Source: Bdellovibrio sp. (GTDB taxonomy: Bacteria; Bdellovibrionota; Bdellovibrionia; Bdellovibrionales; Bdellovibrionaceae). Taken from it: a stretch of DNA of 64,000 bases. Location of the stretch: assembly GCA_036676395.1 (NCBI GenBank), contig JAKFCY010000002.1, positions 352,001 through 416,000 on the forward strand. Reading direction: 5' to 3'. The translations under genes and the position numbers were made by a program. Shown piece by piece: positions 1,730-9,036 of the stretch (its first letter is position 1; the number at the start of each line of letters is the position of its first letter). The notes under the pieces are model-generated. The model did not search any database and had not been told where the DNA came from. It saw nothing but the letters and a program-made list of their open reading frames with translations.

Positions 1730-2624
1730 ACAATTAAAATTAACTCTAAAAAGTTTTTCGATTTTAAAAAACCAACATCAGGCTTTAGTGACCATGGATT
1801 TTGATAAAAGCCAGCGTTGTGAAGCTTTAATGCGTTTATGTTTTTCACCACTGGCCGCGTGGCCACTGTTATTAGTGCTTTTATTTTTTATCATTAATCC
1901 CCTTCGTTATCATTTTTCTTTAAGCCAAACCCTGGGGATGGATAATATTTTCGTGCAAACCCTGTTTGGTATGGATTGGCTTTACGCGGCTATTTTGGCC
2001 ATCGTTGTTTTTGCGGTTAGCTATGTAAGCCGTAAAGAATTTATCGTTATCGCCATAGTGGGTTTTTTAATATCACAAGGGGATATGCATTTATTATTAG
2101 GCATTATTTTATTAGCCTGTATTGTTCTTGCGCGTATTTTTTTAAATTTACGCTGGGTGCGCTCATTAGAAAGTTATTCGAAAGGCACTTGGTTAGTTAC
2201 GGGTTTATTAAGTTTTGTGTCGTGGGCCTTGGCCGTGCATTTATCATTTGAGTTTTATAATTACTTATTACAAGCGGGGTATTTTACGCAGTCGATGTAT
2301 GCTAACCGCTTAGAAGTCTTTATTTTGACGGTGTGTATGTATTATGGCTTAGAGCTTGTGGTTCTGTCGGTGTGGGGGCATTTCTACACGAAAAAAAATC
2401 CCGAGCCATCAGATTTTGCAATTAAGTACTCAAGCAGCGTTCTTTTGAAAAAGCTGACACTAGGTAAAGCGTTTAAAGAGGACTTACGTGACCAAGTCAT
2501 CGTGATTAAGAATAATCAACGCGTGTATGCAAATGCCGATCTAGACCTTTTGCCTAAACGTTTAGTCGATCTGCATCGAAAAGAAGAATCTTTTTTGACT
2601 ACAGCATTATCCTCTCTAACATAG
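1710..2624 (+). CDS. Hypothetical integral membrane protein
   Basis: About 6 hydrophobic segments; ATG at 1710 or 1719 overlaps the rsmJ end. Confidence 0.7.
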   Translation: MISMVFEQLKLTLKSFSILKNQHQALVTMDFDKSQRCEALMRLCFSPLAAWPLLLVLLFFIINPLRYHFSLSQTLGMDNIFVQTLFGMDWLYAAILAIVVFAVSYVSRKEFIVIAIVGFLISQGDMHLLLGIILLACIVLARIFLNLRWVRSLESYSKGTWLVTGLLSFVSWALAVHLSFEFYNYLLQAGYFTQSMYANRLEVFILTVCMYYGLELVVLSVWGHFYTKKNPEPSDFAIKYSSSVLLKKLTLGKAFKEDLRDQVIVIKNNQRVYANADLDLLPKRLVDLHRKEESFLTTALSSLT

Positions 2625-2628
2625 AGGA

Positions 2629-3477
2629 ATGTCTGACGAAATTGCCCGTTTAAAGGGTATCATTCACATGAAGGATCAAGAGCTTTTGTTGTATAAACAA
2701 GAGTTGTTGAAATTTTCGCATCAGTTAGACAATGTCATGATCCAGATTTCGGGTGATGTCGATTTATTAAAAAAAATCCAAAAAGTTTTAACTCCTACTG
2801 AAATTCCTAATATTCCGGGTTTTGAATTTAGTCGTAAGTTCGTCTATGGGTCACGCTACGGTGGTGATTACTTCGACATTTTTGAACATGAAGACAAATT
2901 GAAGTTCGGTATTTTATTATCGTCATCATCAGGGTATGCGATGTCGGCTTTGTTTTTATCTTTGATTCTAAAAGTAACCCATTTGATGGAAGCTAAAAAA
3001 GGTTTGGCGCCAGAGAAGGTTTTGGAACAGATTGGTGCAGAGCTTAAATCGACAGCAAAAACGACTGATGAAACTCAGGCCTTTTACGGGGTGATTGATC
3101 GTCGTGATTTAACTTTAAATTTTTGTGCAGTTGGCCGAATCAAAGGCTTTTTGCAGTCACCGGGTAAACCGTTGCAAATGATCTCGTCGGATTCGGCAGC
3201 ATTGGGTTCAATGACTTCGCCTGTTTTTAAATCAGCGAGTGTTGAATTAGAACCAAAGTCTAGAGTGGTGCTACTGAGTGATGGTATTTTAGAGGTTTTG
3301 TCGACGGATCAAATTAGTCAATGTTTGCAAGCTCTGGGTAATTCGTCACAGGTTCATGATGTGCGTAATGAAATCTTATTGAAATGCCAGCTGGTGTCTG
3401 GTCTTGATACTCCGCTACGAGATCAGACTGTCGTCGTGATCGAAGTTAAAGACAGAGTGATAAAACTAGCCAAGTAA
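2629..3477 (+). CDS. PP2C/SpoIIE (RsbU-like) phosphatase-family protein with N-terminal coiled coil
   Basis: IQKVLTP, GGDYFD, LSDG and DQT motifs; the DxSGHG motif is degenerate. Confidence 0.8.
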   Translation: MSDEIARLKGIIHMKDQELLLYKQELLKFSHQLDNVMIQISGDVDLLKKIQKVLTPTEIPNIPGFEFSRKFVYGSRYGGDYFDIFEHEDKLKFGILLSSSSGYAMSALFLSLILKVTHLMEAKKGLAPEKVLEQIGAELKSTAKTTDETQAFYGVIDRRDLTLNFCAVGRIKGFLQSPGKPLQMISSDSAALGSMTSPVFKSASVELEPKSRVVLLSDGILEVLSTDQISQCLQALGNSSQVHDVRNEILLKCQLVSGLDTPLRDQTVVVIEVKDRVIKLAK

Positions 3478-3532
3478 TTCGATATTTGGTAATTCTAATA
3501 CGTTACATTCAATCAATGAAGAAGAGGGCATT

Positions 3533-4669
3533 ATGGCTGATATTACTATTTACGAAGGCGCTTTAGATAAAGGTTTAGAAGGCGTTGTTGCTTGTACAAC
3601 AGCGGTTTCATTTATCGTTGGAAATACTTTAAACTATCGTGGTTACACGATTGAAGATTTATCGGCTCATTCAACTTTTGAAGAAGTGATCTATTTACTT
3701 TGGAATAATAAATTACCAAATAAATCTGAACTTGCAGCTATCTCTGAAGACTTAAATAAAAATATGACTTTAGATCCTGCCTACATTGCAGTTCTAAAAA
3801 CATTACCAACTAACGTTCACCCAATGGCGTGGTTACGTACTGCAGTTTCTTTGATGTCTCACTGGGACACTGATGCAAACGATAACTCTGTTGATGCAAA
3901 TGCGCGTAAAGCGGTTCGTTTGACAGCTAAAATGGGTTCAATCGTTGCAGCATTCGAAGCGATTCGTAACAAACGTGAAATCGTTCAGCCTAAATCAGGC
4001 AAGTCTATCGCATGGAATTTCATGTACATGTTAAAAGGTTCTGAGCCAGATGCAGAATTAGTAAAAGTAATGGATACAGCGTTGATCTTACACGCGGATC
4101 ACGAATTAAACTGTTCAGCTTTCGCCACTCGCGTAACAGCTTCTTCATTATCTGACATGCACTCAGCCATCGTTTCTGCTATTGGTGCTTTAAAAGGGCC
4201 TTTACATGGCGGCGCGAACGAACAAGTTATGGTGATGTTAGCTAAAATCGGCACCATGGAAAAAGCACAACAATTCGTGAAAGATGCGTTAGCTGCTAAA
4301 GAAAAAGTAATGGGCATCGGTCACCGTGTTTACAAAGACGGCGATCCTCGTGCCGCTATTTTGAGAAAGATCTCTCAACAGTTAACTAAAAAAATCGGCA
4401 AACCTGAATTGTACGAAATGTCGACTTTGATCGACGATACAATGAATAAAGAAAAAGGTTTAATGCCAAACGTAGATTTCTACTCGGCAACTGTTTACCA
4501 CTCAATGGGAATTCCGACAGATATCTTCACACCTATCTTCGCAGTTTCTCGCGTAGCTGGTTGGATTGCACATGCTAACGAGCAGTACGAAAAAAATCGT
4601 ATTTACCGTCCGCGTGGTAAATGGCAAGGAAAAGAAGGCTTAAGCTGGAAGCCAGTAGACGCTCGCTAA
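3533..4669 (+). CDS. gltA: Citrate synthase / 2-methylcitrate synthase
   Basis: GLEGV, HADHELN, GPLHGGANE, GIGHRVY, PNVDFYS, RVAGW; short 378-aa dimeric type, so PrpC activity is possible. Confidence 0.9.
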   Translation: MADITIYEGALDKGLEGVVACTTAVSFIVGNTLNYRGYTIEDLSAHSTFEEVIYLLWNNKLPNKSELAAISEDLNKNMTLDPAYIAVLKTLPTNVHPMAWLRTAVSLMSHWDTDANDNSVDANARKAVRLTAKMGSIVAAFEAIRNKREIVQPKSGKSIAWNFMYMLKGSEPDAELVKVMDTALILHADHELNCSAFATRVTASSLSDMHSAIVSAIGALKGPLHGGANEQVMVMLAKIGTMEKAQQFVKDALAAKEKVMGIGHRVYKDGDPRAAILRKISQQLTKKIGKPELYEMSTLIDDTMNKEKGLMPNVDFYSATVYHSMGIPTDIFTPIFAVSRVAGWIAHANEQYEKNRIYRPRGKWQGKEGLSWKPVDAR

Positions 4670-5305: not shown

Positions 5306-5704
5306 ATGGCTACAGTATTCACAAAAATTATTAACGGCGAATTACCTTCATATAAAATTCATGAAGATGAATTAACGTTGTCATTTTTAGCTTTAGACCA
5401 AGTTAACCCAGGCCATGTGTTAGTGATCCCGAAACAAGAAGTAAATCACTGGTTTGATGTACCTCCTGAAATCTATAATCGTGTTGGCCACAATGCCCAG
5501 ATGATTGCAAAAGCCATTAAAGTAGCTACCGGTTGTCCGCGTGTTGGTGTGATGGTGGCGGGGTTTGAAGTGCCGCACTATCATATGCATTTGATTCCAG
5601 CGAACAGCATTCCTGAATTAGATTTTAAACGCGCCCAAAAACTGCCGCCTGAACAAATGCAGGCGATTCAAAAAAAGATCATTGAAGCTTTAAATTATAA
5701 ATAA
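5306..5704 (+). CDS. HIT-family nucleotide hydrolase
   Basis: VFTKII.GE.P, GH.LVIPK, HYHMH histidine triad. Confidence 0.92.
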   Translation: MATVFTKIINGELPSYKIHEDELTLSFLALDQVNPGHVLVIPKQEVNHWFDVPPEIYNRVGHNAQMIAKAIKVATGCPRVGVMVAGFEVPHYHMHLIPANSIPELDFKRAQKLPPEQMQAIQKKIIEALNYK

Positions 5705-5852
5705 ATTGGCAAACTACGCACCTTCGTCGGGCAAATAAATAAACAGTGAAATATTTTTCGGTTTAATTCGAGAAATTAGGTCAATAATTCTAAACTTTTT
5801 TGTCTCAGAAAGCGCATAAGTTCTTGTTATGGAACACCTAAATTTTTTGATT

Positions 5853-5881
5853 TTGTGAAATCGTTACACCTTTAGTATTCT
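5853..5881 (+). promoter_or_regulatory. Putative sigma70 promoter of the 5888-6119 transcript
   Basis: TTGTGA-N17-TATTCT; predicted +1 near 5888 coincides with the start of a 5' hairpin. Confidence 0.55.
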
Positions 5882-5920
5882 TTACTTAACCGTTCTAACG
5901 GTTCGAAGGGAGGTGGTCTT

Positions 5921-5968
5921 ATGGTTAAACAACAAGACATAACTAAGGCGGAGGTGTCGGCACCTTAG
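5921..5968 (+). CDS. 15-aa small ORF MVKQQDITKAEVSAP
   Basis: ATG 7 nt after GGAGG within a very strong SD; TAG stop lies inside stem P2. Confidence 0.5.
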   Translation: MVKQQDITKAEVSAP

Positions 5969-6078
5969 AGAAATCTAAAGTATCGAAACTTAGTGACCTA
6001 TGGTCGCTGAGGCCTAGCGTAAGCTAAACCTCCGCCGTAGAAATTGTCATTCGAATCTTAAACAAAATTTATGATTCA

Positions 6079-6119
6079 AACGGCTGGTAAGAATAAGATC
6101 TACCAGCCGTTCCTTTTTT
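6079..6119 (+). terminator. Intrinsic terminator
   Basis: AACGGCTGGTA / TACCAGCCGTT stem followed by CC and T6. Confidence 0.8.
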
Positions 6120-6136
6120 GGGGTATCACATTAGCC

Positions 6137-7522
6137 ATGGATATTCTGAACTTTATCGATGGCGACTTCGCCAAACCTGTACAGCCCGCAACGTTCACGC
6201 AAGAGCGTCCATTTAACGATAAAACTATCTTAGTCGCCAATAGTTCAGCTCTCGATTTGGTAAAAGCCATCCAAGGCTCGCACACCGCATTTAATACCTG
6301 GAAAGAATCGACGATTGAAGACCGCGTTGTCTTAGTCGATAAAATCTTACACTACCTTCAAGACCATAAAAATCAATTTGCAGAACAGGAAGCCTGGAAT
6401 CAGGGTTTAAACTTAGCGTTTTCATTATCGGTAAATATTGATGTGGCCATAGCTAAGCTAAAAAACTTAAAAATCGAATTACACAAGGGTATTCCCGAAG
6501 GCTACGGCGTATTACCTGTGGGCGTGGTCGGCGTAGTTTTATCATGGAACTTATCAACAAGACTATTTGTTGAAAAAGTGCTTCCTGCGATTTTAGCCGG
6601 AAACTCTGTGATTGTTAAAATTTCAAGTTATTCACCAGTCACAGCCAAACTTTGGGGAGAGTTATTTCAATCAGTTGGAATGACTGCAGGTCTGGTTCAG
6701 ATGCTGCATAGCCAAGATGCTGGGTTTAAAAAATTATTCATCACGCATCCAGGAATTAAAGCCTTGTTAGTCACTGGCACTTTAGAAAATACCAGCGAAA
6801 TCATAAAAACTGTAGCGCAAATGACGACACAACAGTTTAAGAAAATTCAAATTCACTCGGGATCTAAAAATACTGCAGCAGCACTAAATGAACCTGTTGA
6901 GAAAGAAATGAATGAAATTTTAAATTCTTTTCTTTTTGGCCAAGGACAACTGGCGTGGAATTCATCAAGATTATTTATTTTAGAAAAACACGAACAGCAG
7001 TGGACTGAATTTGTAGCTCATAAGCTACATGATTTAAAGCCGAGCACTGATATTCATGATTGGTCACCGTGGACACCGCTCATGAAAATGAAATCGGTGG
7101 ATCAGTTCGCTTCGTTAGTTCAACAAGCTAAGACAGATCAGGCAAAAATTATATCGGCAGATGGGGCATTGCCCTCAAATAAATATGTAAAACCATTTTT
7201 TACTAAAGACATGTCGAACTGTTCGGTGCTGCAACAAGATCAGGTATTGGGGCCAGCATTTATTTTATCAACGGTGAAATACGCCTTCGATATTCCGAAA
7301 TATAGTAATGTTTCTTATTATGGGCATTCTGCCACAGTGTGGACAGAGGCCGGCAAAAACCAAAAGACCATCCAGCAATTGGATGTTGGTCTAGTTAGTC
7401 TTAATCGCTGGAGTATTTATCAAGATTCAGCCATTGAAGGTGTCAAACAATCATCGTTTGGAAATATGAATAGCCAGATATTTGGCGACTTTTATTGTAA
7501 CGTCAAAAAGCTGACGACTTAA
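6137..7522 (+). CDS. Aldehyde dehydrogenase-fold protein, catalytic residues apparently lost
   Basis: NFIDG, PVGVVGVVLSWN, AGNSVIVK and GP motifs present. Start moved to ATG 6137 because 6071-6136 contains the terminator. Confidence 0.8.
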   Translation: MDILNFIDGDFAKPVQPATFTQERPFNDKTILVANSSALDLVKAIQGSHTAFNTWKESTIEDRVVLVDKILHYLQDHKNQFAEQEAWNQGLNLAFSLSVNIDVAIAKLKNLKIELHKGIPEGYGVLPVGVVGVVLSWNLSTRLFVEKVLPAILAGNSVIVKISSYSPVTAKLWGELFQSVGMTAGLVQMLHSQDAGFKKLFITHPGIKALLVTGTLENTSEIIKTVAQMTTQQFKKIQIHSGSKNTAAALNEPVEKEMNEILNSFLFGQGQLAWNSSRLFILEKHEQQWTEFVAHKLHDLKPSTDIHDWSPWTPLMKMKSVDQFASLVQQAKTDQAKIISADGALPSNKYVKPFFTKDMSNCSVLQQDQVLGPAFILSTVKYAFDIPKYSNVSYYGHSATVWTEAGKNQKTIQQLDVGLVSLNRWSIYQDSAIEGVKQSSFGNMNSQIFGDFYCNVKKLTT

Positions 7523-7535
7523 GTCGGGCGTATGG

Positions 7536-7772
7536 CTATTGAATCGTATGACTTTTTGAGCGCATGCGGATATTGCATTGCGGGCAGAAGGCTTCTTCTT
7601 TAATTTCGCCATTAGCTTCAGTGGTTGTTACTTTAAGTTCTAATGATGTCGCGCACAACACACAGTTGCATTGAAGGGCGATAAACGCTTTTTGAAACGT
7701 GTTTTCAGTTTTCTCGTAACGGGGAAGATCAGATAATTTTAAATGGCTGTTGGCCGTATCTTGAGATCTCAT
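7536..7772 (-). CDS. Small zinc-ribbon-like hypothetical protein
   Basis: CNCVLC...CPQC; GGAGGAG SD upstream. Confidence 0.7.
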   Translation of the reverse strand: MRSQDTANSHLKLSDLPRYEKTENTFQKAFIALQCNCVLCATSLELKVTTTEANGEIKEEAFCPQCNIRMRSKSHTIQ

Positions 7773-7953: not shown

Positions 7954-9036
7954 TTACGATCTAAAGTCCAAATTTAAACTGTTTTCAAAATCATTTTTAT
8001 CAAACGCTAACTGAATTAATTTTGTAATCAAATCGCTGTAACCCACGCCTTTGGCTTCCCACATCATTGGGTACATCGAAATTTTAGTAAAACCCGGCAG
8101 CGTGTTAATTTCATTAACCGTTAACGAGCCATCTTTTTTCATAAAGAAATCAACGCGAGTTAATCCATCGCAGTATAAAGCTTGATATGTTTTAACAGCT
8201 AAACTTCTGATCTGTTCAGTTTGTTCAGCTGTAACTTTAGCCGGAATGATAATTTCTGCCCCATTAGGATCAAGGTATTTTGCCTCATAAGAATAAAATT
8301 CGTGTTTAACTACTAATTCACCGGGCATAGCGGCTTCTGGTTTTTGATTTAAACCCATCACTGAACATTCAACTTCTCGGCCGTCGATAAATTCTTCAGC
8401 TAATACTTTATGATCGTATTTAAAAGAATCTTTTAATTTAGCAGCAAACTCATCTTTAGATTTAATCTTATGCACGCCCACTGAAGAGCCCGCATTTGCA
8501 GGTTTAATAAAAAATGGAAGGCCCAAGTTTTTGACCAAACCGTCAAAATCCGGAGTTTCATAACTTTTTAAAACCGCATATTTAGAATTCGGAATTCCTG
8601 CAGCCGTCATGATGATTTTCATCACTTCTTTATCCATCGCAATAGCTGAAGACATCACGCCACAGCCTACAAACGGAAGGCCTAAGATTTTAAGATGTCC
8701 TTGCATAGTGCCGTCTTCGCCGTTGGTTCCATGAATGATCGCAAAAGCGCAATCTAATTCTTGGCGTTGTTGGTTTTGCAAATTAAGAGCAAAAACTTTT
8801 GATTGCGCACGAATTAAAGTGATCGTTTGTTCTTGCGCCATTTTGTTATCGTTGATGGCTTCTAAGGTTTCAAAATCTTTTTCATTGATTGCATACCAAG
8901 TTCCTTGCTTAGAAACGCCGATAAGCACCGGAGAAAACTTTGTTTTATCCATAGCTTTAAAAATATTACGAGCAGAGTTAATTGAAACTTCGTGTTCAGA
9001 AGAATGGCCACCAAAAATAACTGCAATTTTTTTCAT
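7954..9036 (-). CDS. ddl: D-alanine--D-alanine ligase
   Basis: GGHSSEHEVS, HGTNGEDG, KPANAGSSVG, YEAKY, EINTLPG, SMYP. Confidence 0.95.
   Translation of the reverse strand: MKKIAVIFGGHSSEHEVSINSARNIFKAMDKTKFSPVLIGVSKQGTWYAINEKDFETLEAINDNKMAQEQTITLIRAQSKVFALNLQNQQRQELDCAFAIIHGTNGEDGTMQGHLKILGLPFVGCGVMSSAIAMDKEVMKIIMTAAGIPNSKYAVLKSYETPDFDGLVKNLGLPFFIKPANAGSSVGVHKIKSKDEFAAKLKDSFKYDHKVLAEEFIDGREVECSVMGLNQKPEAAMPGELVVKHEFYSYEAKYLDPNGAEIIIPAKVTAEQTEQIRSLAVKTYQALYCDGLTRVDFFMKKDGSLTVNEINTLPGFTKISMYPMMWEAKGVGYSDLITKLIQLAFDKNDFENSLNLDFRS

Follow-up and report, generated by a model that had tools for sequence, protein, structure and literature searches.

A single-copy RNA family of Bdellovibrionota, homologous to APsRNA2, with a conserved mini-open reading frame and two Shine-Dalgarno sequences

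Introduction

The stretch of Bdellovibrio sp. DNA analysed here, 64,000 nucleotides (nt) in length and referred to throughout as the window (assembly GCA_036676395.1, contig JAKFCY010000002.1, positions 352,001 to 416,000), carries at positions 5853-6119 of its forward strand an autonomous small gene for a predicted RNA of about 230 nt, which would start at about 5888 and whose terminator ends at 6119. The interval holds, in this order, a promoter, a 5' hairpin (H0), a Shine-Dalgarno (SD) sequence (SD1), a 15-codon mini-open reading frame (mini-ORF), a four-way junction closed by helix P1, and a terminator. The RNA is its genus's version of a single-copy RNA family that is spread through much of Bdellovibrionota, and the family is best read, from a comparison of its members, as an mRNA-like RNA whose conserved parts are directed at the ribosome rather than at a protein product. 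The type of transcript is already known, as a homologue, APsRNA2, was reported from Bdellovibrio bacteriovorus (Karunker et al., 2013); what is new is the family, its breadth, the conserved frame of its ORF, and a design with two SD sequences, the second of which (SD2) is paired to an internal anti-SD mimic.

Comparison of homologues points to selection for 16S-tail pairing, for locking of the start codon, for the reading frame and not the peptide, for an 11-nt distance between SD2 and the stop codon, and for the masking of SD2 by the mimic, and from these features we infer ribosome docking, a hand-over of SD2 and a physiological output. We hypothesise, with confidence and doubt in about equal measure, that this is a translation-operated switch or ribosome-holding RNA for the non-growing attack phase, and that it is neither a peptide gene nor a leader of the aldehyde dehydrogenase (ALDH) gene that follows it in the window. 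The design bears on the question of ribosome handling in attack-phase cells, which are highly motile and do not grow, and of how growth is resumed.

Breadth of the family

By BLASTN, 19/24 further genomes of the genus carry the element, as against 0/16 from other families, and a degenerate pattern matched exactly once in 41/52 genus genomes (the reversed pattern, used as a control, gave 0 matches). A covariance model built from 34 distinct genus sequences (R1, from A2) identified one locus per genome in 51/151 genomes of the order, including 16/17 of the sister genus g17. A second model, built from 51 diverse sequences (R2, from A4), again gave one locus per genome, in 52/151 genomes of a phylum sample, and reached four families outside the order (f15, 9/20; f17, 8/20; f22, 7/14; f29, 3/3). 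Inspection of 20 of these out-of-order loci showed the same layout in 19. One candidate homologue, L127, proved to be the start of a real protein gene and was set aside as a false positive. Unless otherwise stated, the counts of layout conservation given below refer to 85 homologues.

The initial annotation had named conservation of the extended SD and of the ORF in relatives as a check, and both are conserved in this set; the 15-codon ORF it described, with its 3' half and stop codon buried in structure, is real and is conserved far beyond the genus. Its statement that the RNA matches no recognised riboswitch, tRNA, tmRNA, 6S or SRP pattern also agrees with our search of Rfam 15, which returned 0 matches at gathering score across the whole window; at E <=10 the region 5700-6200 gave only chance-level matches, the best of 16-22 bits against cut-offs of 45-208. 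The family is absent from Rfam, and the present alignments would support a new entry.

Pairing with the 16S tail and the locked start codon

The 5' hairpin is supported by covariation, with 5/5 of its pairs covarying in both the genus set and the wider set; in the 51-sequence set 95.3% of cells are paired and 56 cells are changed on both sides, a result reached by 0/500 shuffles. A likeness of the H0 and stop-codon hairpin loops to UUCNUA was considered as a family feature and rejected, being seen within the order and not in out-of-order homologues.

The Shine-Dalgarno stretch, AGGGAGGTGGTCT at 5907-5919, begins with its 5' extension 17 nt from the inferred 5' end of the RNA. It had been annotated as pairing with the conserved 16S tail over 13 nt, or over 15 nt should the tail continue, and the 3' end of the genome's own 16S, ...GGATCACCTCCTTTCTAAGG, provides the full 15 contiguous pairs. 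Of the 934 GGAGG sites in this 3.4-Mb genome, none matches the 16S tail over so great a length as SD1, except for 16S read in antisense and a repeat on contig C14, which match as well. At about 3480-3640 of this 7-kb contig (genome G000) lies a long inverted repeat with arms like a 15-nt perfect SD (AGAAAGGAGGTGGTC...) plus its complement.

Across homologues the SD1 consensus is (A/G)GAAAGG(A/G)GGTG(G/A)T. In most of the 66 homologues scored the match to the 16S tail spans 11-16 nt, and in six genus sequences, with a GGTGG core, it is 7 nt. Covariation in trans between SD1 and the 16S tail is uninformative, because the tail is identical in all five genomes compared (G000, G003, G029, G116 and G175). 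We also considered a sponge for CsrA of the CsrB/RsmZ type, in which several GGA motifs are displayed in hairpin loops, and rejected it: the RNA has two GGA sites, one in single-stranded SD1 and one inside P1, with none in loops, and conservation extends to GGTG(G/A)T, which is the 16S match and not the CsrA motif.

The SD1 core lies 7-8 nt from the start codon in 72/85 homologues, and the start codon, ATG in 73 and GTG in 12, is closed by a hairpin (S) whose loop holds the N-terminal codons. Minimum free energy (MFE) folding pairs the central base of this codon in 62/66 homologues, a measure that leans towards pairing; an alignment-based count is impossible because the 3' arm of S falls in different columns in each family. 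The same closure is reached by differing sequences, such as GUUAUG/CAUAAC, GCCCAUG/CAUGGGC and AAUGGUU/AACCAUU, among others. The hairpin is weakest in the clade of the window, where a G-to-C change leaves 5 pairs.

A conserved frame rather than a conserved peptide

The mini-ORF is probably translated, judging by its SD, its start codon and the conservation of its frame; if so, the RNA would belong with the dual-function (peptide-coding) sRNAs. The ORF varies in length from 12 to 22 codons (15 codons in 44 homologues), and we examined the frame with start and stop defined solely by their spacing, that of the start from SD1 and that of the stop from SD2. With 15/85 homologues falling outside these definitions, all 70/70 usable homologues were in frame, and they represent nine length classes. 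Within the genus the spacer between the start and the first conserved codon, GAC, is 9, 12 or 15 nt in 41/41 matches, and the variable region contains no in-frame stops, although out-of-frame stops do occur.

One possibility is that the peptide of 12-22 residues (MVKQQDITKAEVSAP in the window) is what matters, with the RNA structure tuning its synthesis. A strong SD with an ATG or GTG at the usual 7-8 nt, a frame kept in every testable homologue, the freedom of the variable regions from in-frame stops and the conservation of DITKAEV through genera g1, g16 and g17 are all what a micropeptide gene would show. However, beyond E-V the peptide varies across families, and this surviving pair is encoded by GAGGUG, which is the coding of SD2 itself. 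The codon before E-V is ACG, UCG, GCG or CCG, so that one-base changes freely give T, S, A or P, K-to-M and E-to-G replacements are radical, and the last three residues vary. Moreover, synonymous positions are near-invariant in the genus (GAC ATA AC[T/A] AAG GCG GAG GTG), which argues for constraint on the mini-ORF at the level of RNA. We consider a micropeptide gene distinctly unlikely. With E-V the only residues conserved across families, the mini-ORF also does not resemble ribosome-arrest peptides of the TnaC or SecM type, which keep residues near the C-terminus or in the tunnel, and a PqqA-like precursor was considered and rejected since no Tyr follows Glu.

SD2, the stop codon and the anti-SD mimic

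SD2, a GGAGG core within the 3' part of the mini-ORF, lies 11 nt from the stop codon in 68/85 homologues by script and in 6 more by eye (L084, L085, L087, L088, L115 and L117), or about 74/85. This spacing persists in L086-L088, where P1 has shifted off SD2. Of the stop codons, 57 are TAG, 28 are TAA and none is TGA, compared with background shares in this genome of 0.28, 0.60 and 0.12 respectively, and the codon is placed within a hairpin loop or next to it.

SD2 pairs with a CCUCC-type arm to form helix P1, which makes this arm a mimic of the ribosomal anti-SD; in L121 the arm reads CACCUCCGUG and has 8 bases in common with the 16S tail. A test of the longest run of pairing between SD2 and downstream sequence gave a mean of 8.7 against 6.8 in shuffles. 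It is a weak discriminator because G-U pairs are allowed, and we relied instead on the identity of the arm and on covariation. P1 is 99% paired in the genus and its base covaries among families (GGCGG/CCGCC, GCCGG/CCGGC, UACGG/CCGUG).

Small RNAs (sRNAs) with anti-SD seeds exist in other bacteria, and this raises the possibility that the RNA acts in trans by base pairing, its seed being the CCUCC-type mimic or the purine-rich SD1, with the mini-ORF merely gating or stabilising it. An sRNA-like size, an own promoter and terminator and a conserved anti-SD-like arm are in keeping with this, and base-pairing regulation is what the authors who described the APsRNAs proposed (PMC3627812). Against it, P1 engages the mimic in all ground-state folds, the sequences conserved through the phylum are matches or complements of the 16S tail alone, with no target-specific seed visible among them, and a pure base-pairing RNA would have no need of a conserved frame. 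We regard a trans-acting sRNA as unlikely.

The fold and what varies in it

The plus strand folds at -87.5 kcal/mol (MFE, z -6.7, 0/200 shuffles as good), and the minus strand has the same z (-6.7). RNAalifold, applied to 7 distinct sequences of the window's clade, keeps helices P0 to P3 with 4 compensatory pairs in P2 and P3, and by eye P4 also shows compensatory changes within the clade. P0, which extends P1, recurs in relatives as AUGAC/GUCAU, UUGAC/GUCAA and AUGAC/GUCGU.

The interior of P1 holds one hairpin in g17, L013 and L035, two in most of the genus and three in the clade of the window. The predicted four-way junction is, on the folds and compensatory changes, real for this clade and specific to it. 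Of the two GNRA loops seen here, GAAA and GUAA, the second becomes UAAA, UAAAA or UCUAA in close relatives. The junction and loops of the initial annotation are accordingly present in the window and fall away as defining or conserved features. Covariation in P1-P4, another check it had named, holds across families for P1 and within the clade for P2 and P3; for P4 it was judged by eye, and P3 and P4 are confined to the clade. The variable interior of P1, together with the unconserved GNRA loops, rules out a conserved ligand pocket. A riboswitch was rejected, there being no conserved junction core and the conserved bases being those of the SD-like and anti-SD-like arms. A T-loop was also considered and rejected, as the loops are one base short.

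Homology to APsRNA2

Karunker et al. (2013; PMC3627812) described eight attack-phase sRNAs in B. bacteriovorus HD100, with candidates filtered against long 5' untranslated regions. APsRNA2 was given there as a 134-nt RNA with a mapped start and no FliA promoter, at 8,869 reads per kilobase per million (RPKM) in attack phase against 204 during growth, a 43-fold difference. In the available text of that paper the APsRNAs are reported as non-coding and without homology outside the species, and the function of APsRNA2 is given as unknown.

The printed 134-nt sequence is an exact substring of our locus L076 at the model match (R1, E 4.7e-16; R2, E 1.1e-21), so this type of transcript had already been reported. 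With models from the window's genus matching the APsRNA2 locus and the order of parts in common, the comparison indicates that the window RNA and APsRNA2 are homologous. Like the window RNA, APsRNA2 has a 5' hairpin, SD1, a 15-codon ORF (MVKNVDITKAEVTSS), SD2 at 11 nt before a TAG, P1 and a terminator. They differ in that P1 of APsRNA2 encloses the stop-codon hairpin alone, whereas that of the window RNA adds two further hairpins, giving the four-way junction and a length of about 230 nt, and in their neighbours, a CheA/Hpt-like gene for APsRNA2 and the ALDH gene for the window.

The description of the RNA as undescribed therefore has to be withdrawn, given the transcript published in 2013, which in the available text is without an ORF, structure, family or function. 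The suggestion of a role in the attack phase, on the other hand, fits the 43-fold induction of the B. bacteriovorus homologue. On the available sources, attack-phase induction of the family is known for HD100 alone. Our literature search found APsRNA2 named in one relevant paper, that of Karunker et al. (2013), and a search of the Bdellovibrio literature found nothing on its ORF, structure or function. As the available text of that paper presents it, APsRNA2 was an unexplained sRNA, one of the eight seen in attack phase in this one species, and was reported without homologues. As a side observation, APsRNA5, 6 and 7 as printed (Fig. S1, PMC3627812) have an SD-like stretch followed by an ATG near their 5' ends, and may also be small mRNAs.

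It could be argued that the RNA is a bulk sponge or hibernation RNA, in which SD1 titrates 30S or 70S particles and shuts translation down in attack phase. In keeping with this idea, the pairing of SD1 takes in the whole 16S tail and is unsurpassed in strength within the genome, hairpin S locks the start codon, and the homologue is induced in attack phase. However, the published 8,869 RPKM is far below the levels of tmRNA and of merRNA, the latter put at twice tmRNA (PMC3627812), and the roughly 230-fold shortfall against merRNA makes titration of bulk ribosomes unlikely. Nor would a sponge call for conservation of the frame, a constant spacing between SD2 and the stop, or indeed any stop codon, and we think this explanation improbable.

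The locus and its neighbours

The features of the locus are collected in Table 1. The sigma70-like promoter is weak, and the simple consensus scan did not call it because only 8/12 positions match the consensus; its -10 element is kept across the genus. The start of the RNA is placed at about 5888 because the mapped 5' end of APsRNA2 is the first base of the 5' hairpin. The terminator is predicted by MFE, which puts a short two-pair stem in its loop, and was missed by a simple scan; a terminator-like hairpin is present in every homologue inspected. Promoter, 5' hairpin and terminator, as first annotated, are all to be found in the sequence. The upstream palindrome lies about 60 nt 5' of the RNA start, and none was seen in the g17 loci.

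Table 1. Features of the small RNA gene, in window coordinates
Feature	Position	Strand	Details	Basis
Palindrome	5816-5830	+	ATAAG-N5-GTTAT (ATAAC-N5-GTTAT in relatives); possible regulator site	genus alignment
Promoter	5853-5881	+	-35 TTGTGA 5853-5858, 17-nt spacer, -10 TATTCT 5876-5881	read in sequence
5'-terminal hairpin H0	5888-5903	+	AACCG / TTCTAA / CGGTT	covariation
SD1	5905-5919	+	GAAGGGAGGTGGTCT; 15 contiguous pairs (3 G-U) with own 16S 3' tail	complementarity
Hairpin S	5918-5943	+	TTATG 5919-5923 pairs with CATAA 5938-5942; loop holds N-terminal codons	MFE
Mini-ORF	5921-5968	+	15 codons, MVKQQDITKAEVSAP; stop TAG 5966-5968	ORF reading
P0, extension of P1	5936-6048	+	GACA 5936-5939 pairs with TGTC 6045-6048	MFE and RNAalifold
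P1-closed domain	5947-6036	+	5' arm GGCGGAGGT 5947-5955; 3' arm ACCTCCGCC 6028-6036 (anti-SD mimic)	fold
SD2	5950-5954	+	GGAGG core within GGCGGAGGTG, 11 nt 5' of stop	homologue comparison
P2	5957-5986	+	holds stop codon	fold
P3	5989-6011	+		fold
P4	6015-6026	+		fold
Extra hairpin	6053-6077	+	GAATC ... GATTC, between domain and terminator; variable among relatives	MFE
Intrinsic terminator	6080-6119	+	stem 6080-6089/6102-6111, then CC, T-run 6114-6119	sequence and MFE

In the window the element adjoins a HIT-family gene on one side and the ALDH gene (ATG at 6137) on the other. In other families the neighbouring genes are unrelated and often convergent or divergent, and these varied neighbours, together with the element's own promoter and terminator and its single copy, indicate an autonomous gene and not a leader, in agreement with the standalone unit first described.

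RNA-library contigs from three runs, 154-175 nt long and 100% identical, lie wholly within the element, extending from 5899/5901 to 6054/6073. The runs consist of contigs, which do not show transcript ends, and DNA may be present in libraries of this kind. Runs X1-X3 give no cover of the HIT and ALDH flanks; four runs hold small shares of the sampled words, and this lack of cover does not imply absence. Run X6 has a relative's contig, 93% identical and with 12 differences, that covers window positions 6080-6249; it takes in the terminator together with 110 nt at the start of ALDH, and could be either read-through RNA or carried-over DNA.

The possibility most obviously raised by the position of the element is that it is a cis-acting leader or attenuator of the ALDH gene, which starts 17 nt past the terminator. 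The two are on the same strand and immediately adjacent, ALDH is downstream in three genera (g16 and g18 as well as that of the window), the element remains beside ALDH in relatives where the HIT gene has been displaced, the X6 contig runs on into ALDH, and the ALDH start in the window has no SD. On the other hand, the gene downstream is different, convergent or missing in g17, g19, g20 and most other families, and in one genome of the genus the element is present with no ALDH downstream. Among the folds listed for an ORF held unpaired, the terminator persists and no antiterminator appears; a P1 interior of one to three hairpins is also unlike a ligand-binding aptamer. Further, many relatives have a promoter-like CTTGTA-N16/17-TAAATT at the ALDH start, conserved 6 nt before the ATG (L007-L010, L012, L015-L020), as if in these relatives ALDH were read as a leaderless mRNA from its own promoter. 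An ALDH leader is, in our view, very improbable.

Some observations on the neighbourhood may be recorded here. Ahead of the window's ALDH there is a weak TATCAC, 7 nt before the ATG at 6137. In one genus genome a methyltransferase-like ORF (L033, 1713-2504) separates the element from ALDH, and in L036 two secreted-looking ORFs (1837-3018) follow the element, ALDH not being within 1.5 kb. Convergent to ALDH in the window is an ORF of 78 amino acids (7536-7772, minus strand) that is Cys-rich, zinc-ribbon-like and without a Pfam match, and in genus g19, where ALDH is missing, a Cys-rich zinc-ribbon-like ORF comes directly after the element (L085, 853-1104, minus strand). In g17 the gene downstream is the CheA/Hpt-like one, and ahead of it, about 100-200 nt past the element, L069-L079 carry TAAA-N15-CCGATAA, which by its consensus we take to be a sigma28 (FliA)-type promoter.

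A proposed mechanism

In the mechanism that we propose for a translation-operated, ribosome-holding RNA, the 5' hairpin would protect the 5' end, and SD1 would pair with the single-stranded 16S tail and dock a 30S subunit beside a start codon closed by hairpin S. On opening of S, the ribosome would read the 12-22 codons, unzipping P1 and P2 as it went. Once the stop codon (UAG or UAA) had reached the A site, SD2 would lie 8 nt before the P-site codon, a geometry like that of initiation, and the anti-SD of the ribosome could take SD2 over from the internal mimic. This capture would hold the ribosome on the RNA and release the mimic, leaving it available to cover SD1 or to pair with another sequence. 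Possible outputs are RNA stability, ribosome parking, single-occupancy translation or an effect in trans of the freed arm.

A more specific version is that this is a phylum-wide ribosome RNA, which docks 30S, carries a mini-ORF meaningless as peptide and recaptures the ribosome at the stop on the mimic-masked SD2, acting as a device for ribosome parking or for sensing translation capacity. We offer this version tentatively and hold it to be somewhat doubtful. We know of no described riboregulator that works by such recapture on a masked second SD, and if the recapture reading is true, it would represent a device that helps predatory bacteria to manage their ribosomes in attack phase.

A number of points weigh against a translation-operated, ribosome-holding RNA. 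The homologues are related, and counts across them overstate their independence. Transcript support in the window's own genus consists of the RNA-library contigs, which may carry DNA, and the published level of APsRNA2 is, as noted, about 230-fold below merRNA. The peptide core DITKAEV is kept within family f1, where a role for the peptide is possible. About 11/85 homologues deviate from the 11-nt spacing, and four loci of family f22 are without the canonical SD2 spacing. The hand-over of SD2 and the masking of SD1 by the mimic are argued from geometry and complementarity, and MFE folding in which a 'ribosome' occupies the stop is noisy, with SD1 fully paired downstream in 31/65 and unpaired in 15/65. 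In these stop-masked folds the partner of SD1 is often the U-rich 3' tail and not the mimic.

Comparison with known systems

The double-SD plus mimic design is, to our knowledge, unlike any riboregulator that we can name, and several known systems resemble it in part. The first is the STAB-SD 5' stabiliser of Bacillus thuringiensis cry3A, where a bound 30S is thought to protect the RNA (Agaisse and Lereclus, 1996, via PMC4113751). The window RNA likewise has a 5'-proximal SD-like sequence with 15 contiguous pairs to the 16S 3' end. As described in the available text of PMC4113751, STAB-SD does not initiate translation and shields a long downstream mRNA from RNase J1. Unlike STAB-SD, the window RNA has a start codon 7 nt on and a conserved frame, and it ends about 150 nt past the ORF.

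At the prfB +1 and dnaX -1 frameshift sites an internal SD-like element at a fixed distance acts through the anti-SD of the translating ribosome, and dnaX also has a downstream hairpin. The likeness lies in a GGAGG-type sequence within the ORF at a fixed distance from the stop. Unlike these sites, the window RNA has no slippery sequence, second frame or downstream ORF, its SD2 is masked beforehand by the mimic, and the SD2-to-stop distance is 11 nt compared with 3 nt for prfB.

Leader peptides, such as those of the trp and his attenuators, ermC/cat and TnaC, are very short ORFs whose translation remodels the RNA downstream, and the window RNA similarly presents a well-initiated, very short ORF followed by a terminator. 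It differs in having no conserved regulated gene, antiterminator, regulatory codon run or arrest peptide. A leader-peptide transcription attenuator was considered and rejected, no antiterminator being found in the constrained folds listed and the downstream genes being different or convergent.

Finally, sRNAs of the RsaE/RoxS type carry C/U-rich anti-SD seeds for the ribosome-binding sites of mRNAs, and the window RNA has a CCUCC-like segment of this kind. Unlike the seeds of RsaE and RoxS, this arm invariably pairs with an SD inside its own RNA, which also carries a full SD and a reading frame.

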